This document shows positions 2,461 to 29,610 of a stretch of DNA of 32,000 bases, piece by piece; position 1 is the stretch's first letter; each line of letters begins with the position of its first letter. Made by a program: the position numbers and the translations under genes. The stretch covers positions 6,235-38,234 of the forward strand of contig JACPWU010000004.1 of the NCBI GenBank assembly GCA_016196885.1, written 5' to 3'. This DNA is from Chlamydiota bacterium (GTDB lineage: Bacteria > Auribacterota > JACPWU01). The notes beneath the pieces were generated by a model. That model was not told where the DNA came from. It was given only the letters and a program-made list of their open reading frames with translations, and did no database searches.

Positions 2461-3276
2461 TTGGAAATTCCAGAATTTTCCCTGGCCTCATTTCTTCCGG
2501 AATCAGCGGATGCAGAGATCTTCTGTGGCAAGGTCCCTGATTTGAAGCCTCATTCTAAACAACTCGTTCTCGATATTAAGGAGGTCGCTCGTTTTTTAAT
2601 CACGGAGGGCAGAAAAATTATTTATGAGCCTTGTAGAAATTCTGATCAAGACACCCTTCGTTTGTTTTTACTCGGCTCTTGCATGGGGGCTCTCATGCAG
2701 CAGCGAGGTCATGTCGTGCTTCATGGGAATGCGATTTCTAGGGATGGGAAAACGTGTCAAGTGTTTGTGGGAGATCGAGGGGCAGGGAAATCAACCCTGG
2801 CGGCTTGGTACTACCAACAAGGTGCTTATGTCCTGGCCGATGACGTGTGTGCGATTGGTTTTGATCGAAATGGAAAGCCTTATGTGATTCCAAGTTTTCC
2901 ACAGATAAAGTTATGGCAGAAAGGGGCAGAGCTTCTTGAAATCAACACTTCTTATCTTCGTCGCGTACGCCCTGGGGATGATAAATTCGGACTTCCCATT
3001 CACTCTCAATATTGTGACCATCCCTTGCCCTTGACAGAAGTGATAGAAATTAAGAGCCGATCCTTCACGCGTATCCCCCTCACTGGCACAGAAAAAATTA
3101 AAATATTGATCCAGCATAGCTATCGCTACCATTTTCTGCGTGCGATGGTATTGGAATACACTTATTCAAGAAGTTTAGCTCGTTTAGCACAGCAAGTGGA
3201 TTTTGCAAAAATGGGCAGGGTCAACTTGGATTTTCTTAGCATTCCGGCGAAGAGGCCTTACGATGCAAAGTCTTAA
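2461..3276 (+). CDS. HPr kinase/phosphorylase-related kinase (lasso-peptide kinase type)
   Basis: HVVLHGNAISRDGKTCQVFVGDRGAGKSTLAAWYYQQGAYVLADDV contains a Walker A motif in the HprK C-terminal-domain context. It is adjacent to lasso B/C genes. The TTG start has no clear SD, so the start is uncertain. Confidence 0.7.
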   Translation: MEIPEFSLASFLPESADAEIFCGKVPDLKPHSKQLVLDIKEVARFLITEGRKIIYEPCRNSDQDTLRLFLLGSCMGALMQQRGHVVLHGNAISRDGKTCQVFVGDRGAGKSTLAAWYYQQGAYVLADDVCAIGFDRNGKPYVIPSFPQIKLWQKGAELLEINTSYLRRVRPGDDKFGLPIHSQYCDHPLPLTEVIEIKSRSFTRIPLTGTEKIKILIQHSYRYHFLRAMVLEYTYSRSLARLAQQVDFAKMGRVNLDFLSIPAKRPYDAKS

Positions 3277-3874
3277 TTTTTTTAGACACTGCGGTCTCTT
3301 TATTCAGGAGAATTTTTTGGATGTGCAAACCTGTGCTAAAATACAAGATGAAATGAGATCTGCTGTTGGGAAAGACGGACAGATCTACTCTCAAAGAGAA
3401 CAAACTTTTGTCGTGGATCATGAGATCAGAAAAGTGAAATCATTTCAGGTTTCACAAGCGACAGAAGGGTATGTCAAAGATCGCCTTCTTAAAATTCGGC
3501 CAACCCTGGAGAATTATTTTCAGGTTCAACTGACGGGGCATCGCAGACCTGTATTTCTTTTTTACGAGAAGGGGGACTTTTATAGAGCGCATTCTGATGT
3601 GGGTGGTTTGGATTCAAAGGTTCCGCATATGGCCTCTCGCAAAATCTCCATAGTGATATTTCTGAATGCCGAGTCGTCTCTCCCAAGTTCTGAAACCTAT
3701 TGCGGGGGTGCATTGACCTTTTTTGGAATTCTGAATAATTCCAAGTGGAAGCCGTATGGATTTCCACTCAAAGGAGAGAAAGGATTGTTGGTTGCTTTTA
3801 GGTCAGAGGAAATACACGAGGTTTTGCCTGTCACGTCAGGAGTGCGCTCGACCCTTGCGGTGTGGTTTAATTGA
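3263..3874 (+). CDS. 2-oxoglutarate/Fe(II)-dependent oxygenase (prolyl-4-hydroxylase-like)
   Basis: It carries an HxD triad (FYRAHSDVGG), a distal His (EEIHEVLPVTSGVRSTLAVWF) and the 2OG-binding Arg. I prefer the ATG at 3263 (MQSLNFF, SD gaagagg 7 nt upstream, 14-nt overlap with the kinase stop) over the track TTG at 3203. Confidence 0.7.
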   Translation: MQSLNFFRHCGLFIQENFLDVQTCAKIQDEMRSAVGKDGQIYSQREQTFVVDHEIRKVKSFQVSQATEGYVKDRLLKIRPTLENYFQVQLTGHRRPVFLFYEKGDFYRAHSDVGGLDSKVPHMASRKISIVIFLNAESSLPSSETYCGGALTFFGILNNSKWKPYGFPLKGEKGLLVAFRSEEIHEVLPVTSGVRSTLAVWFN

Positions 3875-3890
3875 GAATTGGTTTTTACCA

Positions 3891-4076
3891 TCAAGAATTT
3901 GCATCGTTTGGGTAAACACCCCCGTCCACTGGGAGGCTCATCGTTCCACTCCCTGTGGAGTGGAGTTCAATTTTTTCAAGCGTAGGGGGCACCCATGGCT
4001 TTTTTTGAAGCACAGTCCCGATAGAGGTGTCTTTTCCTCCGTCCAGTTTCTGAGAGGGGAGGTGAGAGCTTTTCAT
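3891..4076 (-). CDS. Lasso peptide precursor (A peptide), 61 aa; predicted core SGTMSLPVDGGVYPNDANS
   Basis: An internal ATG (4076..4074) lies within track ORF 3891..4136. It gives MKSSHLPSQKLDGGKDTSIGTVLQKKPWVPPTLEKIELHSTG/SGTMSLPVDGGVYPNDANS. The leader has KKxWxxPxL and Thr at -2. The core has Asp9 for a 9-residue macrolactam and a C-terminal Ser. The gene lies 19 nt downstream of B2 on the same strand. A GTG at Val22 is a possible alternative start. Confidence 0.7.
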   Translation of the reverse strand: MKSSHLPSQKLDGGKDTSIGTVLQKKPWVPPTLEKIELHSTGSGTMSLPVDGGVYPNDANS

Positions 4077-4095
4077 AGCATAGGTTCCTTTTCTT

Positions 4096-4560
4096 TTAAA
4101 TTTTATTTTGATGGGAATACATTCCCACAATGACATAATTCAAATGCGGCTGAGCACCTACAACGGGAATGTTCTTATAGCATACCCAGGCATGGGCATC
4201 GTATTTTTTATGTGAGGAATCTGATTTTTTTAAACCAAGATACACAGTGCCAGATAACCTTCTTCGAGCCAGCATCCATTGGGCTGCCATGGCTTGATCC
4301 AGACATTTGCTATGCCAAGGCAGGTTACAACGCACGATATCAATACCCTTCTGAATAAGGCGAAATGTATTCGGATCGGAGGTTGTGTCTTCTTTACGCA
4401 AGGGAGGATCTATCCTCTTAGAGCCAAGATATTTTAAAAGGATTCGGGAAGGAACAAATTGTATCAAGAGCTTGGCCAAAAAGAGATGGAAAAACGCTTC
4501 TCGACACAAGGAGCGTAACTCTGGGGACAACCGTCGATAAGTTTTAAATTTAGCTCGCAT
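4096..4560 (-). CDS. Lasso peptide biosynthesis B2 protein (transglutaminase-like Cys protease, leader peptidase)
   Basis: WHSKCLDQAMAAQWMLARRRLSGTVYLGL...YDAHAWVCY shows the catalytic Cys and His in the PF13471/McjB C-domain arrangement. It overlaps B1 by 11 nt. Confidence 0.8.
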   Translation of the reverse strand: MRAKFKTYRRLSPELRSLCREAFFHLFLAKLLIQFVPSRILLKYLGSKRIDPPLRKEDTTSDPNTFRLIQKGIDIVRCNLPWHSKCLDQAMAAQWMLARRRLSGTVYLGLKKSDSSHKKYDAHAWVCYKNIPVVGAQPHLNYVIVGMYSHQNKI

Positions 4561-4849
4561 GACGGGTGACCTTTAACAGATGATGTGCATTTAACATATT
4601 TAAAAAGGTTCCTGTCTCCTGCTTACACTGCTCAGGACCTATTGTATAGCACTGCGTCAATTGGCTGAGGAGATCTTGAAGGGATATGGGCTTTTCCAAA
4701 AGCTCCCAGATCTTCGTTCCTACAGGGTTCAAACCAAAATAACAACCTGAGGCTTCATCCAACATCACGGTCTCATCATCAATTTTGGTCGTGAATAGAT
4801 CGTCCCTGTGAACCAGTCTATCGCTCAGATCAAAGAGAGTGTTTCCCAT
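4550..4849 (-). CDS. Lasso peptide biosynthesis B1 protein (PqqD-like RiPP recognition element)
   Basis: KIDDETVMLDEASGCYFGLNPVGTKIWELLEKPISLQDLLSQLTQCY is the PqqD-family fold signature. I prefer the ATG at 4849 (MGNTLFDL, SD aaagagg about 10 nt upstream) over the GTG at 4873. Confidence 0.75.
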   Translation of the reverse strand: MGNTLFDLSDRLVHRDDLFTTKIDDETVMLDEASGCYFGLNPVGTKIWELLEKPISLQDLLSQLTQCYTIGPEQCKQETGTFLNMLNAHHLLKVTRHAS

Positions 4850-4928
4850 GATGGATTCGCCTCTTTCCTGCACTGTTTGGAATCAATGGATCAATAGGGT
4901 TGGTCACCTTTCACTTGATTCAGACCTC

Positions 4929-4957
4929 ATTATGCCTCAACATGGGACTGTCGTCAA
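4929..4957 (-). promoter_or_regulatory. Candidate sigma70-type promoter for the B1-B2-precursor operon
   Basis: The reverse strand reads TTGACG (4957-4952), a 17-nt spacer, then CATAAT (4934-4929). This is about 80 nt upstream of the B1 ATG. Confidence 0.4.
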
Positions 4958-5038: not shown

Positions 5039-6373
5039 GTGAAGGTTCTTGAATTTCATGGCATAGATCATTTAGAAACAGATTCCATCAGCAAGGCGAA
5101 TCTTTTTCCGATCATTTCTCAACTAGATATTCTGAGACAAAAGGGGCATCGTTTAATCCACAAGGCGGGTTTCATCCTGGGTCAAGATTTTGTCTGTGTC
5201 AAGAGGGGATCTAAACTTGAGATAAAAAATATTTCAGGGTTGAAAGTCTGTCGTAAAGCCCATTTGCTAGAAGCCTTTCGCGCCTTCATAAAGGCCGATC
5301 GAGTGGAGCCTGGTTTTCAGGCAACCCCTGACGAGTTTCTTCTATATCTGGCTCAAAAATCCTGGCCTTTAAGGGCCTCTTTATCTCTTGTACAGGATGA
5401 GCTTTGTGGACTGTGGAAGATTGCGCTTTTGGAACGGAGCCGCATTCGAGACGCTTGTGAATATCAATACACTTTACCGGAGTGGTTGAGGGATATGGTG
5501 ATTCTTTTGCCGCCAGAACAGTTTGAAGGGAGATGGGATTCCCATCATCCGAATGTCCTTCGCAGTCGTTCTTCTATCCAGATAGGACGTTTAGGGATTC
5601 AAAAACAAAAGGTGATGGTGATGGAAACATGGATGGATTTAATTCACACCGTTGGAATTTCATCTTCCGTTTTATCTTTTCAAAATCAGGGGGATGCCCC
5701 TCCCCTTTTTCATTATCAAGGCCAGGAGGTCATGCGTCAGGCCATCTCACAATCCTTGGGTTCACCGTTAGCGGTACGTCGTTCAACAGCATCTCTCAAT
5801 GTTGGTTATTGGCAAGCTCGAGAAGAGAAACCTCGTTCTTATTTTGACCCTGAGCTTAGAGAACATTTGCGCAAAGAAGTGGATTCTCTCCTTCCGACTC
5901 AAGGCACTCTTCTTGATATAGCAAGTGGTTCTGCTCCAGTATGCTCAAGGGAAAATCGTGTAGTGAAAGGCGTTGGATTGGTTGAAAAATCTATGCGTGC
6001 CAATAAAATTTTATCTGAGTTCAAAGTTCATGACTTTAATCAAGATCCGAATATTCCTTATCGTGAAAGATTTGATGCGGCAGTGATCTCTTTTGCTGTG
6101 ATGTACTTTACCTATCCTATTGAACTCTTGTGTTCTATTCGTCAGCATCTTAAAGGAGGTGGGAGGTTGGTGATGATTTTCTCAGAACTTTTTTTCGATG
6201 CCTCCGTGTCCGTTAATGCTTGGAATTTCCCTAGGGTTTACGGTTTTAGAAATCGCTGCGAGGTCATCTTAAATTACTTCGAAAGGGCAGGAGGATTTGG
6301 GAAGGTTCATCAAAGGACGGTGAACGATCACTTTTTTATATTTTTTGCAGATGCTCAACCAGAAATGATATAA
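5039..6373 (+). CDS. Two-domain protein: unrecognised ~270-aa N-terminal domain plus C-terminal class I SAM-dependent methyltransferase
   Basis: The C-terminus has LLDIASGSAPV (motif I-like) ...FDAAVISFAVMYFTYPIELLCSIRQHLKGGGRLVMIF (motifs II/III). The GTG start has a good SD. The 3' end overlaps the cyclase 3' end by 19 nt in convergent orientation. Confidence 0.6.
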   Translation: MKVLEFHGIDHLETDSISKANLFPIISQLDILRQKGHRLIHKAGFILGQDFVCVKRGSKLEIKNISGLKVCRKAHLLEAFRAFIKADRVEPGFQATPDEFLLYLAQKSWPLRASLSLVQDELCGLWKIALLERSRIRDACEYQYTLPEWLRDMVILLPPEQFEGRWDSHHPNVLRSRSSIQIGRLGIQKQKVMVMETWMDLIHTVGISSSVLSFQNQGDAPPLFHYQGQEVMRQAISQSLGSPLAVRRSTASLNVGYWQAREEKPRSYFDPELREHLRKEVDSLLPTQGTLLDIASGSAPVCSRENRVVKGVGLVEKSMRANKILSEFKVHDFNQDPNIPYRERFDAAVISFAVMYFTYPIELLCSIRQHLKGGGRLVMIFSELFFDASVSVNAWNFPRVYGFRNRCEVILNYFERAGGFGKVHQRTVNDHFFIFFADAQPEMI

Positions 6374-8181
6374 CTGAGATAACCACACAGCCCTAGACAA
6401 CGCATGTAATTCAAGCGATATTCTACAGCAATATCGTGGTTCTGTTTTTCAATAAAGGGTAAGGCCTTCCACCGACTCAGGATTTTAGAATAATCATAAA
6501 AATCCCAAACCACGGGTAAATCCTTCCATTGTTCAAGTTGCATCAGACGTTTTGAATGATGGGTGTTGTATTGTAAATACCAGTCTGCTGATTGCTCGCC
6601 CCGATAGGGATTGTGGCGGATGGCTTGAGGCACAATATCATCCAATCCTTCACGAACGAGTAATCGGCGCTCTAATTTGCCATAGCCTTTCCAATAAACC
6701 CATTTGGGAATGTTATAACAGAATTTTACAATTTCTAAATCACGCGTTGGGTCTAGCTCATGAATGCCATACCACAATGCCATCGGGGTCATGTAGCTTA
6801 ACCGTGGCGTGCTTCCACGTCCTAAAAGCATCCATACATGTTCATTGAATCCAGCAGCGATTTCTTGACGCATGATCTGACGCGCCATCTTTGATTTTTT
6901 AAAAACAGGATGACATTGTTTTAAATAATCACCATATGCCGTGTAGGGCCTCAGCCAATTCTTCAAGGTCGAAAGGTTAGAACGAATGTTTCGCAAACCC
7001 TCGAAACCTCCCTTCCAAGATAGACTTGCATTTCCACCTCCCGCAGATAATAAGATGCGCCCTTCGTGGGTGAGGGTCTCATCGTATGAAGCCAGAATCC
7101 AATCAAAATGGGTCACGTTACGAACGGGCTGGTCAATGTAAGGATAGAATGTTTTTAAGAGTTCAAAAATATCTGTTTCCGGAGATGCTTGATAAGCCTT
7201 GTGTTGAATATTAGGATAAGCCTTAAGTACTTCCTTAACCAAATGCATTTCGTGATAATACCAGCCGGGATGGAAACTCGGGCCCTCCAGTCCGAGTGGA
7301 ATTTCTGTAAAACCATGAAGGACTTGATTGCGTTGGGCAAGAATTTTAGCGGCCATCGATGCTACTGAACTGGAGTCGAGGCCTCCACTGATATGGGCAT
7401 GAACAGGAAATGAAGTTCTTAAACAGTTGCTCACGGCCTCTTCAAACAATGAGGAAAAATCCCTGTAATAATCTTCTCTTCTCTGATGGCGAATTCTGGA
7501 TCGATTGCGGGTCAATTCCCAGTAGGAGCCTAAATGTATTTGATGGTTCTTTAAGTAGAGGTCACTTGCAGGAGGAAGTTTCTCGACCTCTCGATAGCTG
7601 GTTTGAGTCAGAGGAGCCGAATCCAAAGCGAAATGTGCGAATAGATTTTCATTGATGGAGCAAGAATCACATAAGATTCGAAAGGGACTGAAGTAATTGG
7701 CAAAGATCAAATAATGGTTTTTCTGATAAGCATAGAAACAAGGTTGATTCCCCAGCGGATCGGTCGCGATCCATAAAGATTGATGAGAGGGATCCCATAT
7801 GGAAAATGAAAAATGACCTTGTAAATGATGAACGCAATCTTTATCCCATTTCTCGTAGGCAGCTAGAACGAAGGCGCAGTCAGACATGGTTTTTGATTCC
7901 GCTAAGGAAAGGCCCAGGGCTTCAAGAAGGGTATTGCGATTTGTTAAGTAGATATGGCCAACGATGAGGCAACTTGATTGACGAGACCTGTAAGGCATTA
8001 ACCCTTGTGAGCATTCAGGGGTGACAAAACGTTGCGTACAAACCAGGCCCACATTTTTTTCTATGAAAACGGCTTTGTGATCTGGCTTCCATTTTGGGCT
8101 TCTAAAGGCAGTTTGAATCAGCTTGTCACGATCGATAGGCTTTTCATCTAATCGAATCATTCCACAAAATGCATTTATCAT
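6355..8181 (-). CDS. Lasso peptide isopeptide-bond-forming cyclase (asparagine synthetase B-like, C protein)
   Basis: The 608-aa protein has an AsnB-like N-terminus (AFCGMIRLD) and the PP-loop ATP-pyrophosphatase motif HAHISGGLDSSSVASMA. It is clustered with B1, B2 and the precursor. Confidence 0.8.
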   Translation of the reverse strand: MINAFCGMIRLDEKPIDRDKLIQTAFRSPKWKPDHKAVFIEKNVGLVCTQRFVTPECSQGLMPYRSRQSSCLIVGHIYLTNRNTLLEALGLSLAESKTMSDCAFVLAAYEKWDKDCVHHLQGHFSFSIWDPSHQSLWIATDPLGNQPCFYAYQKNHYLIFANYFSPFRILCDSCSINENLFAHFALDSAPLTQTSYREVEKLPPASDLYLKNHQIHLGSYWELTRNRSRIRHQRREDYYRDFSSLFEEAVSNCLRTSFPVHAHISGGLDSSSVASMAAKILAQRNQVLHGFTEIPLGLEGPSFHPGWYYHEMHLVKEVLKAYPNIQHKAYQASPETDIFELLKTFYPYIDQPVRNVTHFDWILASYDETLTHEGRILLSAGGGNASLSWKGGFEGLRNIRSNLSTLKNWLRPYTAYGDYLKQCHPVFKKSKMARQIMRQEIAAGFNEHVWMLLGRGSTPRLSYMTPMALWYGIHELDPTRDLEIVKFCYNIPKWVYWKGYGKLERRLLVREGLDDIVPQAIRHNPYRGEQSADWYLQYNTHHSKRLMQLEQWKDLPVVWDFYDYSKILSRWKALPFIEKQNHDIAVEYRLNYMRCLGLCGYLSYIISG

Positions 8182-8250
8182 AAGAGATGCCGATGGAGAA
8201 AAAATGAAAGAAATTTACAGGATCGAAGTATAACATCACAGCCGTTCTCC

Positions 8251-8435
8251 TAGAGCGCATTTCTCATCACATTTCTGCTGCTCTTCTCCGATTCCGCCTC
8301 GTCTCTCCGTGCAGACTCGGTCGGCCACGCTCAACATACTGTAAAGTATGCCTCGCATGGCACGGAGCGTCTTCCTCGCATCCAAAGCGGACTCAGGCGT
8401 TCCTCGCGACGAAATCTGATGAGAAATGCGAGCTA
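8251..8435. mobile_element. MITE-like palindromic element, copy B (185 bp), intergenic
   Basis: It aligns end to end, in the same orientation, with 638-822, with about 17 differences including two compensating 1-nt indels. Its termini are tagagcgcatttctcatca and tgatgagaaatgcgagcta. It lies 70 nt upstream of the cyclase start. Confidence 0.6.
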
Positions 8436-8570: not shown

Positions 8571-8972
8571 TTAAAGCTTTGTTCCAGAAAAAGACTTGGT
8601 GACCGTAACCCCATCCAAAGTGGTTTTCTGGGTTCCGGCAAAGGTCTGCCCACTCGCATCAAAGGTGAAACTCATGGAAAGGCTGAATGTTTCTCCCTCT
8701 ACCGTGACGGTTTGAGCCGGGACTGTCACAGTGCTTCCTGAAACGGTTCCCGTCGTTGTAAGGGCAAGAGTTTTATCGGTGATCACCATTTGACTTCCGC
8801 TCTGACTTAAGCTCCAGAGATGGGTTTCTGAAACGCCTGCCTCTGTAAAAGTCACGTTATAATTGCCTGAAAAGTCTGCTGCGGGGCCTTCTGTATCATT
8901 GTCGCAACCCGTGATAAGGAGAGCAAAAAGGGTCATGGCTGCCCCTATTTTTGTGATTCGCATGTTGCTCAA
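8571..8972 (-). CDS. Small secreted lipoprotein of unknown function
   Basis: It has a signal peptide with lipobox LITGC (MSNMRITKIGAAMTLFALLITGCDN). The mature part is Thr/Ser/Gly-rich and looks beta-rich. Confidence 0.6.
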   Translation of the reverse strand: MSNMRITKIGAAMTLFALLITGCDNDTEGPAADFSGNYNVTFTEAGVSETHLWSLSQSGSQMVITDKTLALTTTGTVSGSTVTVPAQTVTVEGETFSLSMSFTFDASGQTFAGTQKTTLDGVTVTKSFSGTKL

Positions 8973-9209: not shown

Positions 9210-11027
9210 TCAAATGCGAGGCGTTCCTTCTAATGCTTCTTTACGCGATTGCAGTTGATAAAGCTTAGCATAAATTCCTTTTTTGGAAAGCAGTGTGGAG
9301 TGTGTTCCCATTTCGACAAGTTCTCCATGATGAAGAACCAGGATGCGACTCACGCTTTTTAAGGTAGCCAGGCGATGAGCGATAATGAACACCGTGCGGT
9401 TTTGAAAAGCCTCTTTCGAAATCCGTTCAATCCATTTTTCTGTCAAGGAATCCATGTGAGCGGTGGCTTCATCCAAAATGAGAATGGAGGGATTTTGAAC
9501 GAGCGTTCGAATGAAGGCAATCATTTGACGCTCACCACTGGACAGATTCGCCCCCTTTTCAAAGATTTCCTTTTTCAAGAAAAGGGGGCCTGACTCAAAG
9601 GGAGCCCTTGCAAAATCGGGCAGGGCCTGAAAGATTTCTCGTCCTTTTTCATCCCAAAGAAAAATATTTTCTTCCACAGTACCTGAGAAAAGAAAAGGTT
9701 CTTGCTGAATGTAACCAATCTTTTGTCGGAGCATGCGTTTATCGGAAGTTTCAGAAATGTTTTTTCCATCGATGAGAATTTCTCCTTGCTCCAGGTCATA
9801 AAATTGCATGAGAAGATGAACAAGGGTCGTTTTCCCTGCACCTGTGTACCCAACGATTCCGATTTTCTCTCCCGCCTCGATGCAAAAATTCAGATTCACC
9901 AAGACCCAAAGAGACTCTTTTTCTTGTGAATAACGAAAAGAGACATTTTGAAATTCAATGGATCCTTGTAGGGAAAGTTTTTCTATTTGAGTTTCTTGCG
10001 GACGAATTTGTTTTTCGAGCGGCCGATCCAGAAATTCAAAGATACGTTCGCAGGAGGTCATGGCCGTGAGAAAGAGATTGTATTTTTCCGTGATGTCTCG
10101 AATCGGTGAATAAAGAGAATGGAGGTAAGCCATGAATGAGACCAGCATTCCGAGTGAAATGGAATTTTTTAAAGAGAGGAAACCTCCGTACCAAATTAAA
10201 AGCAACATGGAAAGACTGCTTAAGAAAGTAATGGTGGGCTGAAAATAGGCGAAGGATTCAAGGGTCTTGATTTGGGTTCGTGTGTAATCTTTAGAAGTGC
10301 GGTCGAAAAGATCATGAAATGTTTTTTGACGGTTGAAAATTTGAATGAGACTCATGCCTGAAATATTTTCGGCGAGCGTTGCATTCAGTTGAGAAAGGGC
10401 CTGTCGGGAATCTCGAGCCGTTTCTCGAATCCTTCGGCCAAAAAATCTTGAGAAAAAGGCCATGATGGGAAAAACACTTACGCAAATGAGGCCCAGGGAG
10501 GGATGAAGAACCATGAGCCAAACGATGATTCCCGCAACCACACAAATATTTCCAAGCGTGACCGCCAGGCCGCTCGTGAAGAGGTCTTGGAGGCTTGAAG
10601 TGTCATTCACCAAGCGGGTGACCAGTCTCCCAATGGGATTTTGGTTAAATTCATGAAGCGGATAGAATTGATATTGTTTCAAGAGATCCTGTCTTAGGTC
10701 ATGAATCACCTCTTGACCCAATTTCGTGAAGCTCAAGTTTTGAAAATAGGTGGCGAGGGCATTGAGGGCATCAAGGGTCAAAAGGATGAATCCAAAAGGT
10801 AAGAGGAGCGCCGCTTTTTTGGGAAGGAGGGCAAGGTCCACAGCTTTTCCCAAAAGCCAGGGAATGGAAAGAGAGGCCCCCGTGGTAAAAAAAACCAATG
10901 AGAGGCTGACGATAAAAAGTTTTCGATATTTTGTGATATAAGGCCAAAGCCTTTTTGTGAAAAGTTCGAAGACTTTAAGACGGAGCCTATTTTCTGGACC
11001 AGAGTCGTCAGGATCTTGCCAGTTCAT
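9210..11027 (-). CDS. ABC exporter, fused permease/ATPase half-transporter (consensus catalytic site)
   Basis: It has a six-helix TMD followed by an NBD. Motifs are Walker A GYTGAGKTT, signature LSSGERQ, Walker B ILILDEAT and H-loop AHRL. It overlaps the upstream partner by 20 nt. Confidence 0.85.
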   Translation of the reverse strand: MNWQDPDDSGPENRLRLKVFELFTKRLWPYITKYRKLFIVSLSLVFFTTGASLSIPWLLGKAVDLALLPKKAALLLPFGFILLTLDALNALATYFQNLSFTKLGQEVIHDLRQDLLKQYQFYPLHEFNQNPIGRLVTRLVNDTSSLQDLFTSGLAVTLGNICVVAGIIVWLMVLHPSLGLICVSVFPIMAFFSRFFGRRIRETARDSRQALSQLNATLAENISGMSLIQIFNRQKTFHDLFDRTSKDYTRTQIKTLESFAYFQPTITFLSSLSMLLLIWYGGFLSLKNSISLGMLVSFMAYLHSLYSPIRDITEKYNLFLTAMTSCERIFEFLDRPLEKQIRPQETQIEKLSLQGSIEFQNVSFRYSQEKESLWVLVNLNFCIEAGEKIGIVGYTGAGKTTLVHLLMQFYDLEQGEILIDGKNISETSDKRMLRQKIGYIQQEPFLFSGTVEENIFLWDEKGREIFQALPDFARAPFESGPLFLKKEIFEKGANLSSGERQMIAFIRTLVQNPSILILDEATAHMDSLTEKWIERISKEAFQNRTVFIIAHRLATLKSVSRILVLHHGELVEMGTHSTLLSKKGIYAKLYQLQSRKEALEGTPRI

Positions 11028-12792
11028 CTTCTATCCTTTGCAGTTCAAGAAGTTCTCGATAAAGTCCGGGCGTCTTCGCCAAATTTAGAGGCATGCCTGT
11101 TTGAATCAGCACCCCTTCTTTAAACACCAAAATTTGGTCGAAGTCCCAGAGTTTTGAAAGGCGATGGGTGATAAGAATTAAGGTTTGGTTTCGAGATAAT
11201 TTTTCATGAGAGAGGTGGTGTAAGATTTCTGATTCTGTATGAGAGTCTACACTGGAGAGCGCGTCATCTAAAATCAAAAGAGGGGCATCTACGGCCAGGG
11301 CCCGGGCCAAGGTCACCCGGGCTCTTTCACCTCCCGAAAGCGTAAGCCCTCGTTCACCCATTTTGAGGTCCAAATTCCATCGTCCCGCTTCTTTGTCCAA
11401 CCCGGAACGTTTCAAAAGTTCAAAAAGCCAAACATCCCCTTTCATTTCAGGAAAGGGCCCCCCCATTAAAATATTCCATCTCAAGGTTTCTCTGAATAGA
11501 AAAACATCTTGGGGGACAAAAGCAATTTTCTTTCTTCGTTCTTCCAGAGGAAGTTTCGAAAAATCGCTGCCTTCCCAGAAAATCATGTGGGGAGGTGTTT
11601 CATGAAGGCCCGCCAAAAGGCGAATCAACGTACTTTTGCCGGACCCGATGGTTCCAACGATGGCGGTGCGACTTCCTTTCTGAATTTGAAAGTTGATGTT
11701 TTGAAGTACAGGGCGGGATGAACCAAGATAGGTGAAAGTCAAATGACGTACTTCTAAAAAGGGAGCATTTATCTGAGAAGGGATTGAGAATGCGTTACCC
11801 TCAGAAGTCTTATTTTCTTCTTTCTCTTGCAACACTTGGCAAATTCTCTCCAAAGAAGTTTTTCCGCGTTGATAATAGGTGACACTGAGTCCAAAGGCAG
11901 TCATGGGCCAGACGAGTTGATCGAGATAACGGGTGAAGGCCGCAAAAGTTCCGAGGCTGATGGAGCCCATGATCACGTCTTTACCGGCAAAAATCAAAAG
12001 AGAGACCAGGCCCAGTGAAACGGCCAATGTGAAAAGAGGGTCGAAAGCGGCCTGGGCGCGGGCGAGCTTTAAATTGAGACGGACGAATTCTTTTCCGATT
12101 TTTGAGAAGCGATTCAATTGTGTCCATTCTCGTGTGAAGGCCTTGATGATGCGAATCCCTTCTAAATTTTCTTGAGAGAAGGCACAGAGTTTCGAAAATT
12201 GATTTTGAACTTTTTCAAAACGTTCGTGAATCAACTTTTCGATCCGGGTGATGATGAAAGGAACCATGAGCATGGGGGCTAGGGAGAGGAAGGCCAATTT
12301 ATAGGATAAGATAAACAGGGTGGGTGGAATGCTCATGAGAAAGAAGGTGGCATCCGCCAAGACCAGCAATCCTGGGCCCAAGGCAAAGCGGACCGCTTCG
12401 GTGTCATTGGTGGCCAAAGACATCAAATCTCCGATCGTGTTCCGATTGTAAAAAGAGGGGGGTAGCTTTTGAAGTTTAGAAAAATAATCGTCCCGGATTT
12501 TTTCCGCTACTTTAAAAGAGCCTCTCATCAGAAACATACGCCAAAAATATCGGCAAATGCTTTGGCCGATAGCGATGGTGATATAGGCCACCCCGAGCCA
12601 AAGGAAGGGAGAGAAATGTTTCTCTCCTTTTAAGGCAAGTGAGGCCCGATCAATAAATTCTTTTAATACAAGAGGAGGGAGGATTTGTAGAAAATCCACA
12701 ATAAAGAGGGTGAGAATGCCAAAGGCAAATTCTCGCTTATAGGGTTTAGCATAGTGATAAAGAGTTTTAAGTGTTTGTGAAAAAGTTATCAT
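11008..12792 (-). CDS. ABC exporter, fused permease/ATPase half-transporter (degenerate Walker B)
   Basis: Motifs are Walker A GTIGSGKST, signature LSGGERA, Walker B LLILDDAL (catalytic Glu replaced by Asp) and H-loop THRL. I moved the start to the ATG at 12792 (MITFSQ, SD gggggag 9 nt upstream), because the 51 upstream codons in the track are translated repeat DNA. Confidence 0.8.
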   Translation of the reverse strand: MITFSQTLKTLYHYAKPYKREFAFGILTLFIVDFLQILPPLVLKEFIDRASLALKGEKHFSPFLWLGVAYITIAIGQSICRYFWRMFLMRGSFKVAEKIRDDYFSKLQKLPPSFYNRNTIGDLMSLATNDTEAVRFALGPGLLVLADATFFLMSIPPTLFILSYKLAFLSLAPMLMVPFIITRIEKLIHERFEKVQNQFSKLCAFSQENLEGIRIIKAFTREWTQLNRFSKIGKEFVRLNLKLARAQAAFDPLFTLAVSLGLVSLLIFAGKDVIMGSISLGTFAAFTRYLDQLVWPMTAFGLSVTYYQRGKTSLERICQVLQEKEENKTSEGNAFSIPSQINAPFLEVRHLTFTYLGSSRPVLQNINFQIQKGSRTAIVGTIGSGKSTLIRLLAGLHETPPHMIFWEGSDFSKLPLEERRKKIAFVPQDVFLFRETLRWNILMGGPFPEMKGDVWLFELLKRSGLDKEAGRWNLDLKMGERGLTLSGGERARVTLARALAVDAPLLILDDALSSVDSHTESEILHHLSHEKLSRNQTLILITHRLSKLWDFDQILVFKEGVLIQTGMPLNLAKTPGLYRELLELQRIEDELARS

Positions 12793-12796
12793 GATT

Positions 12797-13170
12797 TCTA
12801 ACTCCCCCAACCAGACTGTCCGAAAATTTCCCTCCCCCTTGCGACCGAGCCGGGTGCCGCAAAGCGGCCGGCGAGGAAGTGGTCGGAGCCCGTCAGGGCG
12901 CAAACCATGGGGAGGGTTAGGGAGGGGGTGGATTTCTAAAATCAAATATCAAAAATCAAAAATCAAAATGACAATGTAAAATTTAAAATGTTTCTGGATT
13001 CTAAGCATATATAAAATTTTGCATTTTGGTATTTACATTTTGATTTTTGATATATTTTCCACCCTCCCCTAACCCCTCCCATCTAGGGAGGGGAAAAACA
13101 GCATTTTCGGCCCAGCCTGCGGTACCTCCCCTCTTATTTTTTAAGAGGGGACAGAGGGGAGTTAATTCTC
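12797..13170. repeat. Giant imperfect palindrome that occupies most of the 12793-13315 intergenic region (12797-13170)
   Basis: Outer arms: taactccccc (12799) pairs with ggggagttaa (13157). G-rich tggggagggttagggagggggtgg (12908-12931) pairs with ccaccctcccctaacccctccc (13059-13080). AT-rich tandem ATCAAAA arms at 12938-12985 pair with 13024-13056. The centre is near 13000. Local hairpins are cccctccc/gggagggg (13073-13093) and cccctctta/taagagggg (13128-13150). Confidence 0.7.
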
Positions 13171-13239
13171 CTTAAAGTATTCAAACATAGAACCCGAAAG
13201 AGAGACCCAATGTCAAGCAGGGAATCATTACATTTTATA

Positions 13240-13268
13240 TTGAAACTCTGGATGGGATTCGATATGAT
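13240..13268 (+). promoter_or_regulatory. Candidate sigma70-type promoter of the cytochrome oxidase operon
   Basis: TTGAAA (13240-13245), a 17-nt spacer, then TATGAT (13263-13268). SD aggagg (13303-13308) lies 7 nt before the GTG at 13316. Confidence 0.4.
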
Positions 13269-13315
13269 TCGGGCTCTTTTTAGAAATTAAACCCTTTAAA
13301 AGCAGGAGGCGGGCA

Positions 13316-14023
13316 GTGAAAAACGCAAGATCATTTTTGTTGGGTTTGGGGCTTATGATGATGGTAGGGCAGTCCTTGGCCTTGGGAGCAACTTTAACAG
13401 GAAAGGTCCATTTAGAGGGAACCCCTCCTCCCCAGGAAAAAATTAAGATGGATGCAGACCCGGTGTGTCAAATGCAGCATAGCTCGGATGTTTTTGCCGA
13501 GAGATGGGTGGTGAATGGGAATGGGACCCTTCGCAATGTTCTCATCTATATAAAGGAAGGATTGGGCGATAAAACTTTTCCTGCCCCCAGTGAGCCTGTG
13601 GTTCTGGATCAGAAGGGATGCCAGTATCATCCCCATGTCATGGGAATTCAGGTGGGTCAGACTTTGAAAATCGTCAACAGCGATGACACATTGCACAATG
13701 TTCATGGGAAAACCAAAGAAATGTCGCTCTTTAACTTGGCCATGCCCTTTAAAGGGTTGGAACTGGAACAGAAATTTGAAAAGGCAGACATGATTAAATT
13801 TGTGTGTGAAGTTCATCCTTGGATGGCTGCCTATGCAGGGGTATTTAATCATCCTTTTTTTGCGGTCTCGGGGGAGGATGGCAGTTTCGAAATTAAGAAT
13901 TTGCCTGCAGGGACTTATGGGGTTGAGGCCTGGCATGAAAAGTTGGGCACTCAGACTCAGAATGTGACCGTGACAGAGACAGATTCTAAGGCTGTGGATT
14001 TTTCTTTCAAGGTGACTGAATAG
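13316..14023 (+). CDS. Secreted cupredoxin (type-1 copper) domain protein with a C-terminal carboxypeptidase-regulatory-like beta domain
   Basis: It has a signal peptide (MKNARSFLLGLGLMMMVGQSLALG). Cu ligands follow the plastocyanin/azurin pattern: HNVH...C-EV-H-PW-M (FVCEVHPWMAAY). This is followed by GEDGSFEIKNLPAGTYGVEAWH. It sits directly upstream of coxB. Confidence 0.6.
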   Translation: MKNARSFLLGLGLMMMVGQSLALGATLTGKVHLEGTPPPQEKIKMDADPVCQMQHSSDVFAERWVVNGNGTLRNVLIYIKEGLGDKTFPAPSEPVVLDQKGCQYHPHVMGIQVGQTLKIVNSDDTLHNVHGKTKEMSLFNLAMPFKGLELEQKFEKADMIKFVCEVHPWMAAYAGVFNHPFFAVSGEDGSFEIKNLPAGTYGVEAWHEKLGTQTQNVTVTETDSKAVDFSFKVTE

Positions 14024-14029
14024 TTTTTT

Positions 14030-14052
14030 CTGAACGCTAGACGCTGAACGCT
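14030..14052. repeat. Tandem 7-mer block (GAACGCT/AGACGCT x3) abutting the coxB start
   Basis: The sequence ctgaacgctagacgctgaacgct is the reverse complement of the AGCGT(A/T)C unit used at 22881-22912 and 24067-24099. Confidence 0.6.
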
Positions 14053-14721
14053 ATGTTGAATTGGTGGCTTCCAGAAGGTATTTCAACCTACAGTGGCAAG
14101 GTGGATGGTATTTTTTACATCATCTTGGCCATCACGGGTCTCATGTTCTTTTTGGTAGAAGGGGCCATTCTTTTCTTTTGCCTTCGCTATCGTCATACCC
14201 AGCACGCGAAAGCCACTTTTGTAGAGGGGAATACCAAGCTGGAAGTGATTTGGACATTGATTCCAGCTGCAATTCTCATTTTCCTGATGTTTAAAAGTCA
14301 AGGGGTGTGGAGCGAGATGAAATCTCACATGCCCGCGAATCCGGATCTTCACATCGAGGTGACGGCTCAACAATTTGCCTGGAATATTCATTATCCGGAC
14401 TCCGAAGTGACCACCTTGAATCAATTGCATATCCCTGTCGGGAAAAAAGTTTTAGTGCAAGTGACCTCAAAGGATGTCATTCACAGTTTTTTTATTCCTC
14501 AATTTCGCCTGAAGCAAGATGCGGTTCCGGGTTCTAAAATCAATGTCTGGTTCGAAGCCACTCAAGTGGGCCATTACGAGCTTGTGTGCGCGGAGTTTTG
14601 CGGTCTTGCGCATTATCGGATGAGGGGCTATTTGAAAATTGAAACACCTGAGGAATTTCAGGCTTGGCTCGACCAGTCTAAGAAAGAAGCCGAGAAGAAG
14701 GGGGACGAGGATGAGTGGTAA
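14053..14721 (+). CDS. ctaC: Cytochrome c oxidase subunit II (CuA, no fused cytochrome c domain)
   Basis: It has two N-terminal TM helices and the CuA site HSFFIP...CAEFCGLAHYRM. Confidence 0.9.
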   Translation: MLNWWLPEGISTYSGKVDGIFYIILAITGLMFFLVEGAILFFCLRYRHTQHAKATFVEGNTKLEVIWTLIPAAILIFLMFKSQGVWSEMKSHMPANPDLHIEVTAQQFAWNIHYPDSEVTTLNQLHIPVGKKVLVQVTSKDVIHSFFIPQFRLKQDAVPGSKINVWFEATQVGHYELVCAEFCGLAHYRMRGYLKIETPEEFQAWLDQSKKEAEKKGDEDEW

Positions 14722-14726
14722 GGACA

Positions 14727-14791
14727 GTCGTGAGTTGTGAGTCGTGAGGGGTGAGTTTCTTAAAAACAGTTATGAGTCGTCGGTCGTGAGT
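14727..14791. repeat. Two direct blocks of tandem TCGTGAG-like 7-mers between subunit II and subunit I genes
   Basis: The blocks are gtcgtgag-ttgtgag-tcgtgag-gggtgag-ttt (14727-14759) and gttatgag-tcgtcgg-tcgtgag-ttt (14769-14794). They are in direct, not inverted, orientation. Confidence 0.6.
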
Positions 14792-14805
14792 TTTAGAGGA
14801 ATAAA

Positions 14806-16431
14806 ATGAAATCGTTCATGCACAAATATGTCTTTTCCACTGATCATAAAATGATCGGTTTGCAATTTCTTTTTACCGCCTTTCTTTTCATGCTGTTTGG
14901 AGGCCTTTTGGCCATGGCCATCCGATGGCAATTGGCTTGGCCTGGGACAAAATTGCCTGTTCTGGGGGTGATCATGCCTGAAACCTACAATGTTATTTTT
15001 ACCATGCACGGCACCTTTATGATTTTCTTTGTGGTCATTGCCATCATGGTGGGTGCCTTTGCGAATTTCACGGTCCCTCTTTTAATTGGTGCGCATGACA
15101 TGGCTTTCCCAAAAATCAACATGGCCTCTTATTGGCTTTTCTTCATCTCTTGTGTGATTATGTTGGCCAGTTTTTTTGCTCCAGGAGGCGCTGCGGCGAC
15201 AGGTTGGACGGCTTATGCCCCTGTGAGTGTGAAGGCTCCGATGGGACAGTCCTTATGGTTGATCAGCCTGATTGTTCTGGGCGTTTCATCCATTTTAGGT
15301 TCGTTAAATTATTTGACCACGATTGTGAATTTACGTGCACCGGGCATGCATTTTTTTAGAATGCCCATGACGGTTTGGGCCATTTTCATCACGGCGATTC
15401 TGGTTCTTCTCGCAACGCCTGTTTTAACAGCGGCTTTGGCCATGCTTCTTTTGGACAGAGTCTTGGACACTACCTTTTTCTTGGCCGGAACTGGACAACC
15501 CGTTCTTTGGCAACATGTGTTTTGGTTTTATTCTCACCCGGCTGTTTATATTATGATTTTGCCGGCCATGGGAATTGCTTCTGATGTTCTCTCTGTTTTC
15601 TCACGCAAACCTCTTTTTGGATATCATGCCATGGTTTATGCGCTGAGTGCGATTGCAGGATTGGGCTTTATTGTCTGGGCACATCACATGTTCGCAACGG
15701 GGTTGAATCCAACTTTGGGAACTACCTTCATGGTGGCGACCATGTTTATTGCAGTTCCCACGGGCGTGAAGATTTTTAACTGGTTGGGGACGCTTTGGGG
15801 AGGTTCCATCCATTTTTCATCTGCTATGCTGAATGCGATTGCTTTTGTGTCCATGTTTGTCATTGGCGGTTTGAGCGGGGTTTTTTTGGCCGCTGCTTCT
15901 CTCGATATTTATTTGCATGATACTTATTTTGTGGTCGCGCACATCCATTATGTTCTTTTTGGCGGCAGTCTTTTTGGTATTTTTGCGGGGATTTATTATT
16001 GGTATCCCAAAATGTTTGGCCGCATGATGAATGAAAAATTAGGCAAGATCCATTTCTGGCTCACGTTTGTTTTTTACAATCTAACCTTTTTCCCCATGCA
16101 TATCATCGGGATTCATGGGATGCCGCGGCGATTCTACGATTACAAACAATATGAATTTTTAAGAGGCTTGGAACCCTTGCAGCTTCTGATCTCCATCAGT
16201 GCCTTTGCCCTTTTTATTTGTCAGCTTCCGTTTGTGTATAATTTCTTTGTGAATCTTTTTGTTGGGAAAAAAGCGCCCAACAATCCTTGGCAGGCCAATA
16301 CGCTTGAGTGGACGATTCCCTCGCCCGCGCCTCATTTGAATTACGCTAAAGTCCCCATCGTATATCGCTGGCCTTATGAATACAGCTTGCCCCATGCCAA
16401 AGAGGATTGGCTGGCGCAGGATCAACCGTGA
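14806..16431 (+). CDS. ctaD: Cytochrome c oxidase subunit I (heme-copper oxidase, A-type)
   Basis: The 541-aa polytopic protein carries WFYSHPAVYIMILP, WAHHMFATG and VVAHIHYVLFGG, which are the heme a/a3-CuB ligands. Confidence 0.95.
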   Translation: MKSFMHKYVFSTDHKMIGLQFLFTAFLFMLFGGLLAMAIRWQLAWPGTKLPVLGVIMPETYNVIFTMHGTFMIFFVVIAIMVGAFANFTVPLLIGAHDMAFPKINMASYWLFFISCVIMLASFFAPGGAAATGWTAYAPVSVKAPMGQSLWLISLIVLGVSSILGSLNYLTTIVNLRAPGMHFFRMPMTVWAIFITAILVLLATPVLTAALAMLLLDRVLDTTFFLAGTGQPVLWQHVFWFYSHPAVYIMILPAMGIASDVLSVFSRKPLFGYHAMVYALSAIAGLGFIVWAHHMFATGLNPTLGTTFMVATMFIAVPTGVKIFNWLGTLWGGSIHFSSAMLNAIAFVSMFVIGGLSGVFLAAASLDIYLHDTYFVVAHIHYVLFGGSLFGIFAGIYYWYPKMFGRMMNEKLGKIHFWLTFVFYNLTFFPMHIIGIHGMPRRFYDYKQYEFLRGLEPLQLLISISAFALFICQLPFVYNFFVNLFVGKKAPNNPWQANTLEWTIPSPAPHLNYAKVPIVYRWPYEYSLPHAKEDWLAQDQP

Positions 16432-16443
16432 AAATACTATCAA

Positions 16444-16519
16444 CAGTCCACGGTCCATCGTCCATAGAGATAAATGATTCCTTTAAAACTGTGGACCATG
16501 GACTGTGGACCATGGACTG
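16444..16519. repeat. Inverted repeat built from tandem GTCCA(T/C)G units
   Basis: The left arm is cagtccacggtccatcgtccat (16444-16465). The right arm is ctgtggaccatggactgtggaccatggactg (16489-16519). The loop is about 23 nt. It lies between ctaD and the ctaA/ctaB fusion. Confidence 0.7.
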
Positions 16520-16533
16520 GTTGTAGGTTTTGA

Positions 16534-18480: not shown

Positions 18481-18488
18481 GAGATACT

Positions 18489-19088
18489 ATGAGTCATGCG
18501 GCAACAGCGAGTGATGTAAAGGGTTTGAGCCATCCCCTGGGGGTCAACAATGCGAAATTGTGCATGTGGCTTTTTTTGTGTTCAGAGGTGATGTTTTTCG
18601 CAGGATTGATCGGATCTTACATCGTGCTTCGGCTGGGAAGTTTGACTTGGCCGACCCCGGGCGAGATTCTCAACATCCCTCTGACAGGGGTCAATACGTT
18701 TATCTTGATTTGCAGCAGTGTCACCATGGTAAAGGCCTTCGCCTGGGCGCACATGGGAAATCAAACCAAGATCAAAAGGCACCTTTTTCTAACCTTTCTT
18801 TTTGGCGTGATCTTTCTTTCGATCCAGGCCATCGAATATTACAAGTTGTATCATCATCATGGGTTACATCCTTCGGGCAATCTTTATGGGACCTGTTTTT
18901 ATATCCTTACAGGCTTTCATGGCTGCCACGTTTTGGGAGGGGTGATTGCAGTCTTTGTTCTTTGGATCCGGTCTTTGTTGGGACATTTTACAAAGGGGCG
19001 TCATGCCCCGGTTGAATTGGTGGGGCTTTATTGGCATTTTGTGGATTTGGTGTGGATTATTTTATTTACGATTGTTTATTTGATATAA
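18489..19088 (+). CDS. ctaE: Cytochrome c oxidase subunit III
   Basis: The 199-aa five-TM protein carries FFAGLIGSY, GFHGCHVLGGV and YWHFVDLVWI. Confidence 0.9.
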   Translation: MSHAATASDVKGLSHPLGVNNAKLCMWLFLCSEVMFFAGLIGSYIVLRLGSLTWPTPGEILNIPLTGVNTFILICSSVTMVKAFAWAHMGNQTKIKRHLFLTFLFGVIFLSIQAIEYYKLYHHHGLHPSGNLYGTCFYILTGFHGCHVLGGVIAVFVLWIRSLLGHFTKGRHAPVELVGLYWHFVDLVWIILFTIVYLI

Positions 19089-25841: not shown

Positions 25842-25842
25842 C

Positions 25843-25935
25843 GTTCAAAAGTTTAAAAGTTCAAAGGTTCAAAGGAATTTTGAGCTTTGAGGTTTTTACT
25901 TTTGAGCTTTTAAACCTTTGAACCTTTGAACTTTC
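25843..25935. repeat. Inverted repeat built from (G/T)TCAAAG 7-8-mers
   Basis: The left arm is gttcaaaagtttaaaagttcaaaggttcaaagg (25843-25875). The right side is tttgagctttgagg...ttttgagc...aacctttgaacctttgaactttcg (25879-25935). It lies between pepM and ppd alpha. Confidence 0.7.
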
Positions 25936-25940
25936 GTTTT

Positions 25941-26438: not shown

Positions 26439-26447
26439 ATTAGGGAA

Positions 26448-26557
26448 AATGACCAATATCCAATTTCAAATGTCAAATGAATGACCCATTACTAATCTTC
26501 AATTGGACATTGGTTCATTGGAAATTAATTTGTCATTTGTTATTGGACATTGGTTAT
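26448..26557. repeat. Inverted repeat built from CCAAT/CAAATG-type units between the two decarboxylase subunit genes
   Basis: The left arm is aatgaccaatatccaatttcaaatgtcaaatgaatgaccc (26448-26487). The right arm is caattggacattggttcattgg...tttgtcatttgttattggacattggttatt (26500-26557). Confidence 0.7.
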
Positions 26558-26570
26558 TATCAAGGAGTGT

Positions 26571-29601: not shown

Positions 29602-29610
29602 TCAGGAATC

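Follow-up and report, generated by a model that had tools for sequence, protein, structure and literature searches.

The window analysed here is a 32,000-nucleotide stretch of contig JACPWU010000004.1 (positions 6,235 to 38,234, forward strand; assembly GCA_016196885.1) from a genome labelled as a Chlamydiota bacterium, and its element of interest is a short open reading frame (ORF) at 3891-4076 on the minus strand, the probable precursor gene A of a lasso peptide. The ORF is surrounded by a split-B lasso cluster with a complete set of A, B1, B2, C, kinase (K), nucleotidyltransferase (N) and ATP-binding cassette (ABC) transporter genes. C, B1 and B2 all lie within 4.3 kb of it, and the maturation genes are intact. 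Specifically, the transglutaminase-like leader peptidase B2 occupies 4096-4560 on the minus strand (NF033537 at 69 bits against a cut-off of 33; PF13471). B1, a PqqD-like recognition element, lies at 4550-4873 on the same strand (PF05402, E 1.7e-16; NF033536, E 2.7e-18 and 65.9 bits, under that model's 80-bit cut-off), with the public gene call starting it at ATG 4849 for a product of 99 aa. The asparagine-synthase-like lasso cyclase C follows at 6355-8181 (minus strand; NF033535, E 3e-69 and 234 bits, under the 525-bit cut-off; PF00733 and GATase_7).

From 4136 to 3891 the minus strand is open over 81 codons and translates as MSLWECIPIKIKFKRKGTYA-MKSSHLPSQKLDGGKDTSIGTVLQKKPWVPPTLEKIELHSTGSGTMSLPVDGGVYPNDANS before the stop. 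Read from the ATG at 4076-4074, gene A comprises 61 codons and a TGA at 3893-3891 and encodes the 61-aa peptide MKSSHLPSQKLDGGKDTSIGTVLQKKPWVPPTLEKIELHSTGSGTMSLPVDGGVYPNDANS, divided into leader and core as MKSSHLPSQKLDGGKDTSIGTVLQKKPWVPPTLEKIELHSTG|SGTMSLPVDGGVYPNDANS; its start lies 19 nt past the B2 stop codon on the same strand. The 42-aa leader (3951-4076) carries KKPWVPPTL, with WxxPxL at 3978-3995 (positions -15 to -10), and ends in Thr(-2) (3954-3956) followed by Gly(-1) (3951-3953). The predicted 19-aa core, SGTMSLPVDGGVYPNDANS, is encoded at 3894-3950, its cleavage site being placed by the Thr(-2) rule and a profile alignment; it includes Ser1 (3948-3950), Asp9 (3924-3926), Tyr13 (3912-3914) and the C-terminal Ser19 (3894-3896). 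The first-pass annotation, made from the letters of the window, had given positions for the ORF, the core (3894-3950), a GTG at Val22 (4013) and the stop, all of which proved correct on retranslation. Two of its details needed amending: the core holds two Asn, N15 and N18, not one, and 'unannotated' is true in a functional sense only, as GenBank already calls the gene. Identical 61-aa products are held there as 'hypothetical protein' (MBI1883850.1 and MBI3265578.1) from metagenome-assembled genomes (MAGs) labelled Chlamydiae or Chlamydiota bacterium, and the same precursor sequence stands on two Logan contigs.

The pattern of leader and core is rare by chance. The search pattern [YWF]xxPx[LIVM]-x7-8-T-x, followed by 14-26 core residues that have D/E at 7-9 and Ser before the stop, was found once across the six frames of the window, at the precursor ORF, against an expectation of 0.015 per 32 kb (1000 first-order Markov simulations), a figure computed before a position directly behind B2 was required. 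A family profile was also made with the window excluded, drawing on 28 precursors from independent lasso loci that contain a kinase; these training sequences were chosen by eye among regular-expression matches inside lasso gene blocks. When the window was cut into its 967 stop-to-stop segments and all were searched unfiltered, the profile matched the precursor ORF only (E 2.4e-5, 20.3 bits; the runner-up had E 2.3). The alignment sets KkeWqaPqLevLdvsmTm|agpg...D of the profile against QKKPWVPPTLEKIELHSTG|SGTMSLPVD of the window, and so pairs HSTG|SGTMSLPVD with xxTM|AGPGxxxxD. Motif scans and the profile scan yielded no rival precursor in the window; the earlier annotation had allowed for a better-patterned small ORF near the B and C genes, and the profile picked out no other ORF.

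Because the precursor has no detectable sequence homologue, its relatives were reached through the cluster kinase, homologues of which (27-58% identity) were taken from 68 other loci. A scan of one genome per species provided 8 of these, with kinase identities of 40-55%, and a metagenome scan with the kinase alignment provided the 60 further loci; a metagenome scan with the C protein confirmed no relative. The MAGs that hold the nearest relatives of the kinase bear the labels Legionellales, Legionella, Pseudobdellovibrionaceae, UBP8 and Gammaproteobacteria. Where a kinase is accompanied by B1, B2 or C, a small ORF of similar architecture is usually there. Conservation across homologous clusters, on which the first-pass annotation had staked its proposal, is thus what is seen: small ORFs whose leaders share this architecture recur. 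The motif named in that annotation, KKx(Y/W)xxPxL with Thr(-2), is likewise borne out, with WVPPTL at -15 to -10 in the window and the same elements in the relatives from kinase loci. In the five-sequence alignment A1, the W, P, L, Thr(-2) and C-terminal Ser form invariant columns. The 28 curated precursors have leaders of 15-45 aa, place the acceptor at position 8 or 9 of the core and in every case end in Ser; the spacing from W to Thr is 13 in 26 of the 28, as it is in the window. Examples include the precursors of locus L003 (...KQKKELWQTPTLIQIDLSVQTE|GGCAVVPEAACGVFS), L006, with two copies (MTKATWTPPQLEVLDILETE|GKTNNWPDGSNDYSS and ...|LKTSSSSDGSAESAS), and L010 (...KLQPWTPPTLTIFRLEDTQ|WVDSHVRESDGNGYLGS), and many paeninodin-like peptides (MKKEWKQPVLEVLNINMTM|AGPGHKYPDAVQPDPDDPVKYS).

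A less biased count than this curation comes from a profile of the leader and the first nine core residues, which is blind to the C-terminus. Searched against 18,068 segments from other loci, it matched 35 ORFs, 34 of which end in Ser. The paeninodin-like relatives score 45-70 bits with the curated model NF033524 (cut-off 27), and the two L006 peptides score 21.6 and 20.0 bits. At L047, L050, L058 and L060, paeninodin-like precursors in the 45-70-bit range adjoin kinases that are 30-37% identical to the window kinase, which ties the kinase family of the window to the curated paeninodin family. Among the closest kinase loci, L017, L016, L004 and L008 gave no precursor with the patterns used, and at L021 the adjacent Ser-terminated ORF has WSKPTL and lacks Thr(-2). 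On its sequence, the window peptide is a divergent member of the kinase-associated group that lies outside the curated paeninodin model. Taken together, the ORF running from 4076 to 3891 can be regarded as a lasso precursor with a probability of about 0.85-0.9, and the best explanation overall, at roughly 0.85, is that it serves as gene A in a split-B, kinase-containing cluster for a class II lasso peptide.

The related loci hold several further features. L003 carries, at 10001-19037, three kinase paralogues that are 55%, 30% and 28% identical to the window kinase, together with two precursors; the second of these (18867-19037, minus strand) is the sole leader-profile match that ends in His and not Ser (...YEDAMYVSH). 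L034 has two tandem precursor-like ORFs at 7894-8340 (minus strand) with WKAPV leaders, both Ser-terminated; their cores are extremely rich in Gly, Arg and Lys, for example NGATAGGGGRGGRGRRRGGRTKNGQPGEGRRRRGS, and their profile matches are weak (E 0.007 and 0.03). Predicted cores with an initial Asn occur at L018 (3539-3868), L028 (3039-3215), L030 (5898-6071) and L077 (696-839), and read NGVGLGAD..., NAGGDGAD..., NGGSAGSD..., NNTAGTNGD... and NMGNKTQHD...; an Asn at position 1 was first reported in 2025, for metanodin (PMC12670498).

Within the core, the proposed ring can be placed with some precision. Among core positions 7-9 only Asp9 is acidic, Cys is absent from the core, and Thr(-2)-Gly(-1)|Ser1 is the only register that combines an acidic residue at 7-9 with the family spacing. 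The Ser1-Asp9 ring put forward in the first-pass annotation agrees with these features and with the acceptor at position 8 or 9 in the relatives, and it is predicted here as highly probable. Tyr13 is the only bulky residue of the tail. An aromatic residue four to five positions past the acceptor recurs in relatives with short cores (D9 to Y13 in L030 and L069, D8 to Y13 in L006), in keeping with the earlier suggestion of a plug, and Tyr13 is a reasonable predicted steric lock. A bulky C-terminal modification may serve as a further lock by analogy with pseudomycoidin, which unthreads when unmodified and for which a bulky phospho-glycosyl C-terminus has been proposed to hold the thread (PMC6993621).

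The enzyme expected to act on the C-terminus is an HPr-kinase-like precursor kinase of 271 aa at 2461-3276 on the plus strand. It carries His88, the P-loop G104-x2-G107-x-G109-K110-S111 and D127-D128, and all eight residues (H88, G104, G107, G109, K110, S111, D127 and D128) are invariant in the kinase alignment A2. This set matches the lasso-kinase motif of His, GxxGxGKS and DD that is required in BsfK and common to other lasso kinases (PMC10368454). The protein matches TIGR04352 at E 4.8e-5, far under the cut-off, and a Pfam scan gave no match. While the precursor is still linear, PadeK, ThcoK, SyanK and PsmK all phosphorylate or polyphosphorylate its C-terminal Ser (PMC9266682, PMC6993621), a residue described for kinase-associated precursors as an 'extremely conserved site' (PMC9266682), and PsmN is needed to add a hexose to the phospho-Ser, possibly as a lock (PMC9266682, PMC6993621). 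The terminal Ser had been named as the expected phospho-acceptor; the Ser-terminated leader-profile matches (34 of 35) and the published kinases, which modify exactly that residue, both speak for it, and phosphorylation of Ser19 by the cluster kinase is likely by this analogy.

Several observations weigh against the lasso reading or parts of it. A word search of 5.8 billion proteins for precursor homologues returned the peptide itself only, none of the curated family models recognizes it, and the paeninodin model NF033524 gives no match at E<=10; its family assignment stands on motif-level similarity and context. The copies of the locus besides the window are L001 and L002, which are 100% identical and carry no substitution pattern from which purifying selection could be read. 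The candidate promoter of a B1-B2-A transcript, TTGACG-17-CATAAT at 4929-4957 (minus strand) upstream of B1, is weak, since shuffled sequence would be expected to contain as many sites of this sort as the region does. For the kinase, sequence and profile searches of the PDB gave matches at the level of the P-loop only (HPr kinase at E 0.007, ABC proteins at E 0.003), and the window core has Thr3, the position that BsfK modifies (PMC10368454). Stable threading is uncertain with one bulky tail residue, given the unthreading of unmodified pseudomycoidin (PMC6993621). As to the oxygenase of the cluster, the core ASTNRTGMVTDGGCHTGRTH of the oxygenase-bearing L014 cluster contains no Pro.

A chance ORF, or a decayed remnant from which no peptide is made, would fit the shortness of the frame and the terminator-like hairpin of the opposite strand that sits inside it, but this idea has next to no probability when set against a pattern expected 0.015 times per window even before its position is required, a start 19 nt behind B2 on the same strand with a Shine-Dalgarno (SD) sequence, the only profile match in the window and maturation genes that are all intact. 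Where translation begins is a separate matter. The frame offers two starts only, ATG 4076 and GTG 4013 (Val22, 4013-4011), and the latter would give the same precursor a length of 40 aa with a 21-aa leader (MLQKKPWVPPTLEKIELHSTG) resembling the 19-20-aa leaders of the paeninodin type. Most Firmicute-like relatives indeed have 19-aa leaders that begin two to four residues before the W, and since nothing N-terminal of the KK is conserved in alignment A1, the GTG start retains a small share of the probability. It has, however, no purine-rich SD within 17 nt (a GGAGGA lies about 21 nt upstream), whereas the competing ATG has the SD-like AAGGA at 4086-4090 (minus strand), 9 nt upstream; both public gene calls, from two independent gene callers, use the ATG; and L010, L015, L029 and L069, among the closer kinase relatives, have leaders of 39-45 aa. 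A start at ATG 4076 is thus the likely one and the GTG unlikely. The leader had been flagged as long at 42 aa: the length stands, and it is not anomalous, because family leaders span 15-45 aa. A different cleavage register is very improbable. The dipeptide T-M lies three residues inside the proposed core, so that a cut after it (...GSGTM|SLPVD...) would mimic the paeninodin-type T-M|A, and a cut after the Thr would leave Gly1, Gly being the commonest first residue of lasso peptides. Cleavage after G-T-M was rejected because the only Asp residues would then stand at positions 5 and 12, with no acceptor at 7-9, and because it sets the W-to-T spacing at 16, not 13; a cut after Thr would break the Thr(-2) rule and require a 10-residue ring, and the family profile pairs HSTG|SGT with xxTM|AGP.

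A further alternative accepts the precursor and reassigns the kinase target to another residue, for instance Thr3, so that the terminal Ser would not be the acceptor. The model for this is BsfK, which phosphorylates core Ser3 and tolerates a Thr there (PMC10368454), and the window core begins S-G-T. The precursors of that type, however, end in Asp and have Ile(-2), and BsfK is less than 21% identical to the kinases that modify a C-terminal Ser (PMC10368454). The window precursor carries Thr(-2) and a terminal Ser, the loci retrieved by its kinase gave leader-profile matches that are Ser-terminated in 34 of 35 cases, and position 3 of those cores is not conserved as Ser or Thr. Phosphorylation at Thr3 in place of Ser19 is accordingly quite improbable, and the terminal Ser is preferred as the predicted acceptor.

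The nearest characterized likeness is paeninodin (PadeA/PadeK of Paenibacillus dendritiformis; NF033524). Like the window, that system combines split B1 and B2 and a C gene with an HPr-kinase-like enzyme and an exporter of the ABC type, and its leader has KKxWxxPxL and Thr(-2). A nine-residue ring closed on Asp9, as predicted for the window, is given for paeninodin in the alignment legend of the pseudomycoidin paper and appears in the NF033524-scoring precursors. Both precursors end in Ser, and in paeninodin this residue accepts the phosphate before the precursor is cyclized (PMC9266682). The differences lie in the junction (TG|SGT in the window, with Ser as first residue, versus TM|AGPG with Ala), in the core length (19 aa versus 22-28) and in the tail, which in the window lacks both the acidic DPDxD of the paeninodin type and an aromatic neighbour for the terminal Ser. 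The window also differs in its 42-aa leader, in the position of A downstream of B2, in the extra oxygenase and methyltransferase-like genes and in the Chlamydiota-labelled host. The paeninodin precursor itself reportedly reads MKKQYSKPSLEVLDVHQTM|AGPG...; the comparison draws on NF033524-positive metagenomic precursors in its place.

Other known systems share parts of the cluster. Pseudomycoidin (PsmA, PsmK and PsmN of Bacillus pseudomycoides) likewise combines a kinase with an NTP_transf_5-type 'nucleotidyltransferase'. Its terminal Ser is phosphorylated or polyphosphorylated and then receives a PsmN-dependent hexose (PMC6993621). The window nucleotidyltransferase (NTase), a candidate for similar chemistry, differs in having a C-terminal S-adenosylmethionine (SAM) methyltransferase domain. 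The BsfA/BsfK system of the Gram-negative Bradymonas sediminis is a lasso cluster with K and N genes in which B1 stimulates the kinase, and the BsfK motif H...GxxGxGKS...DD is that of the window kinase (PMC10368454). The precursors differ: BsfA ends in Asp and its leader carries Ile(-2) and, at -17 to -12, YxxPxL, whereas the window peptide ends in Ser and its leader carries Thr(-2) and, at -15 to -10, WxxPxL. BsfA is phosphorylated on Ser3. In the canucin A cluster of Streptomyces canus, the 2-oxoglutarate (2OG)-Fe(II) enzyme CanE, assisted by B1, acts as a hydroxylase on the linear precursor (PMC9266682). Its product is a beta-hydroxylated C-terminal Asp, whereas the window enzyme is a PF13640 protein with the fold of prolyl hydroxylase domain (PHD)-type prolyl 4-hydroxylases.

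This window oxygenase, of 203 aa, is encoded at 3263-3874 on the plus strand, convergent with gene A (PF13640 at 46.6 bits against a cut-off of 27). Its HxD...H triad and 2OG-binding Arg (H110, D112, H185 and R195) are invariant. The AlphaFold2 (AF2) model reaches a predicted local distance difference test (pLDDT) score of 95, and its top Foldseek matches are 4iw3 (the Pseudomonas putida prolyl 4-hydroxylase bound to EF-Tu), PHD2 and a Dictyostelium PHD, with E 4e-11 and template modelling (TM) scores of 0.72-0.74 for the P. putida enzyme and HIF-PHD2; a sequence search of the PDB gave one marginal match. Fold, HxD...H and Arg are thus shared with the PHD-type enzymes that act on EF-Tu (P. putida PPHD) and HIF (human PHD2). 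The window enzyme differs from these in its identity of only about 20% and in being encoded in clusters for peptides that are made on ribosomes and modified after translation (RiPPs), where its likely substrate is a small precursor peptide. There are 153 homologues at E<=1e-5, with identities up to 44%. Of six homologue contexts, five are lasso clusters (L011/L012, L013, L014, L075 and L077) and the sixth, L076, is a radical-SAM RiPP-like cluster. The PHD-type fold favours prolyl hydroxylation, and Pro7 or Pro14 is the first guess for the predicted target; Asn is the sole functionalized residue common to all six cores examined. Hydroxylations known from lasso peptides are the Asp beta-hydroxylation by CanE and the 7-hydroxy-Trp of the RES-701 peptides (PMC9266682), and the literature searched contains no report of a PHD-type enzyme or of native hydroxyproline in lasso peptides.

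Two of the oxygenase-bearing lasso clusters have 53-aa precursors (L011, 5666-5827; L014, 7756-7917), with the canonical leader KKSYxxPxLxVYGNLxExT. The first acid of their cores stands at position 11 (GVGARPGTHVD... and ASTNRTGMVTD...), and both end in RTH. Judged from these sequences, either the ring would be unusually large or the cleavage site would depart from the Thr(-2) rule; cut four residues later, both would read R-x-G-x-x-x-D7.

Two further candidate tailoring genes lie on the plus strand. The 604-aa ORF at 589-2403 encodes a fusion of a PsmN-like NTP_transf_5 nucleotidyltransferase with a SAM methyltransferase domain, whose best NCBIfam match is an archaeal protein-lysine N-methyltransferase (104 bits, under the cut-off). 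The fusion has many full-length homologues of about 550 aa and is widespread elsewhere. These align from query residue ~80 onward, so the start of the ORF is probably downstream of 589. Among the 21 NTase genes examined from kinase-lasso loci, none has the methyltransferase domain. The second gene, at 5039-6373 and divergent from B1, encodes an orphan protein of 444 aa in which a SAM-methyltransferase signature is weakly discernible at the C-terminal end (PF13489, E 7.9e-5, under the cut-off). A search of 5.8 billion proteins for its homologues returned only the protein itself, and its single-sequence AF2 model, at pLDDT 37, is unusable.

Beyond these genes, two ABC transporter genes on the minus strand, at 9210-11027 (PF00664 and PF00005) and 11008-12945 (tblastn matches of 25-39% to ABC transporter genes of related loci), form a candidate exporter. 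A stable hairpin at 3944-3965 on the plus strand is followed by TCAATTTTTT to 3976 and falls inside the A coding region, at the codons of the leader-core junction. It folds at -13.7 kcal/mol (z -3.3) on the plus strand and at -15.0 kcal/mol (z -4.1) on the minus strand, that of the A mRNA. The hairpin and its U-run lie 70 nt past the oxygenase stop, within the convergent precursor gene, and look like the terminator of the NTase-kinase-oxygenase operon; with a terminator inside A, plus-strand transcripts of that operon would run antisense over the codons for the A core. Base composition is even along the whole window. A 133-aa ORF between C and the ABC genes (8571-8972, minus strand) has a lipoprotein-like N-terminus (…LLITGC) and a Thr/Ser/Gly-rich body, with no family match. 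Farther along, on the plus strand, lies an aa3-type cytochrome c oxidase operon at 14053-19088 (COX2, COX1, a CtaA-CtaB fusion and COX3). A phosphonate-type gene set at 24171-30597 (plus strand) encodes a fusion of phosphoenolpyruvate phosphomutase with an NTP-transferase domain (24171-25841), a class-V aminotransferase (27122-28234), a second fusion, of NTP-transferase with CDP-alcohol phosphatidyltransferase (28192-29601), and an LPG_synthase_TM protein (29611-30597), and suggests a phosphonolipid or phosphonoglycan pathway.

The available data are compatible with a pathway in which ring, plug and modifications are inferred from family patterns. Gene A would probably be co-transcribed with B1 and B2, to judge from the 19-nt spacing and shared strand, and translated, with the ATG at 4076 favoured, into the 61-aa peptide. 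The PqqD-like B1 would bind the leader through KKxWxxPxL, as is established for the family. By the family pattern and the published enzymology, the HPr-kinase-like enzyme would then phosphorylate the side chain of the C-terminal Ser on the linear peptide. More speculatively, the PsmN-like NTase domain may extend the phosphate and the fused methyltransferase domain may methylate something, and the PHD-type 2OG oxygenase would probably hydroxylate a residue of the precursor, for which Pro7 or Pro14 would be the guess from its fold. B2 would cut after Thr(-2)-Gly(-1), and the asparagine-synthetase-like C would link the Ser1 amine to the Asp9 side chain, closing a nine-residue ring around the tail GGVYPNDANS. 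This tail would be held by Tyr13 and possibly also by a bulky C-terminal modification, and the two ABC proteins would export the product. It is conceivable, and on balance doubtful, that these steps add up to an unprecedented combination: a hydroxyproline or other hydroxylation installed by a PHD-type enzyme of a subfamily dedicated to lasso and other RiPP clusters, together with a C-terminal phospho-Ser that is extended by the NTase, methylated by the fused methyltransferase and/or the 444-aa protein, and locks the thread in place of a second bulky side chain.

The precursor is the expected kind of gene in the expected place; what is uncharacterized about the cluster is its accessory enzymes and the phylum claimed for its host. 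As the peptide lies outside NF033524, automated models miss it, and the finding completes the biosynthetic cluster: a GenBank 'hypothetical protein' gains a functional label as a lasso precursor, with a leader/core boundary and a predicted ring and phospho-acceptor. It also provides a defined 19-residue substrate for three uncharacterized tailoring candidates, namely the PHD-type oxygenase, the NTase-methyltransferase fusion and the orphan methyltransferase-like protein. The literature searched reports no lasso peptides from Chlamydiota, and if the MAG label is right, the kinase-type lasso peptides would be extended to this phylum. Lasso clusters have been noted in the unrelated amoeba symbionts Amoebophilus, Paracaedibacter and Odyssella (PMC8831229). 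This is a hint that they matter for bacteria living as predators or in association with hosts, and, with the labels of the closest kinase relatives, it may be an ecological pattern.

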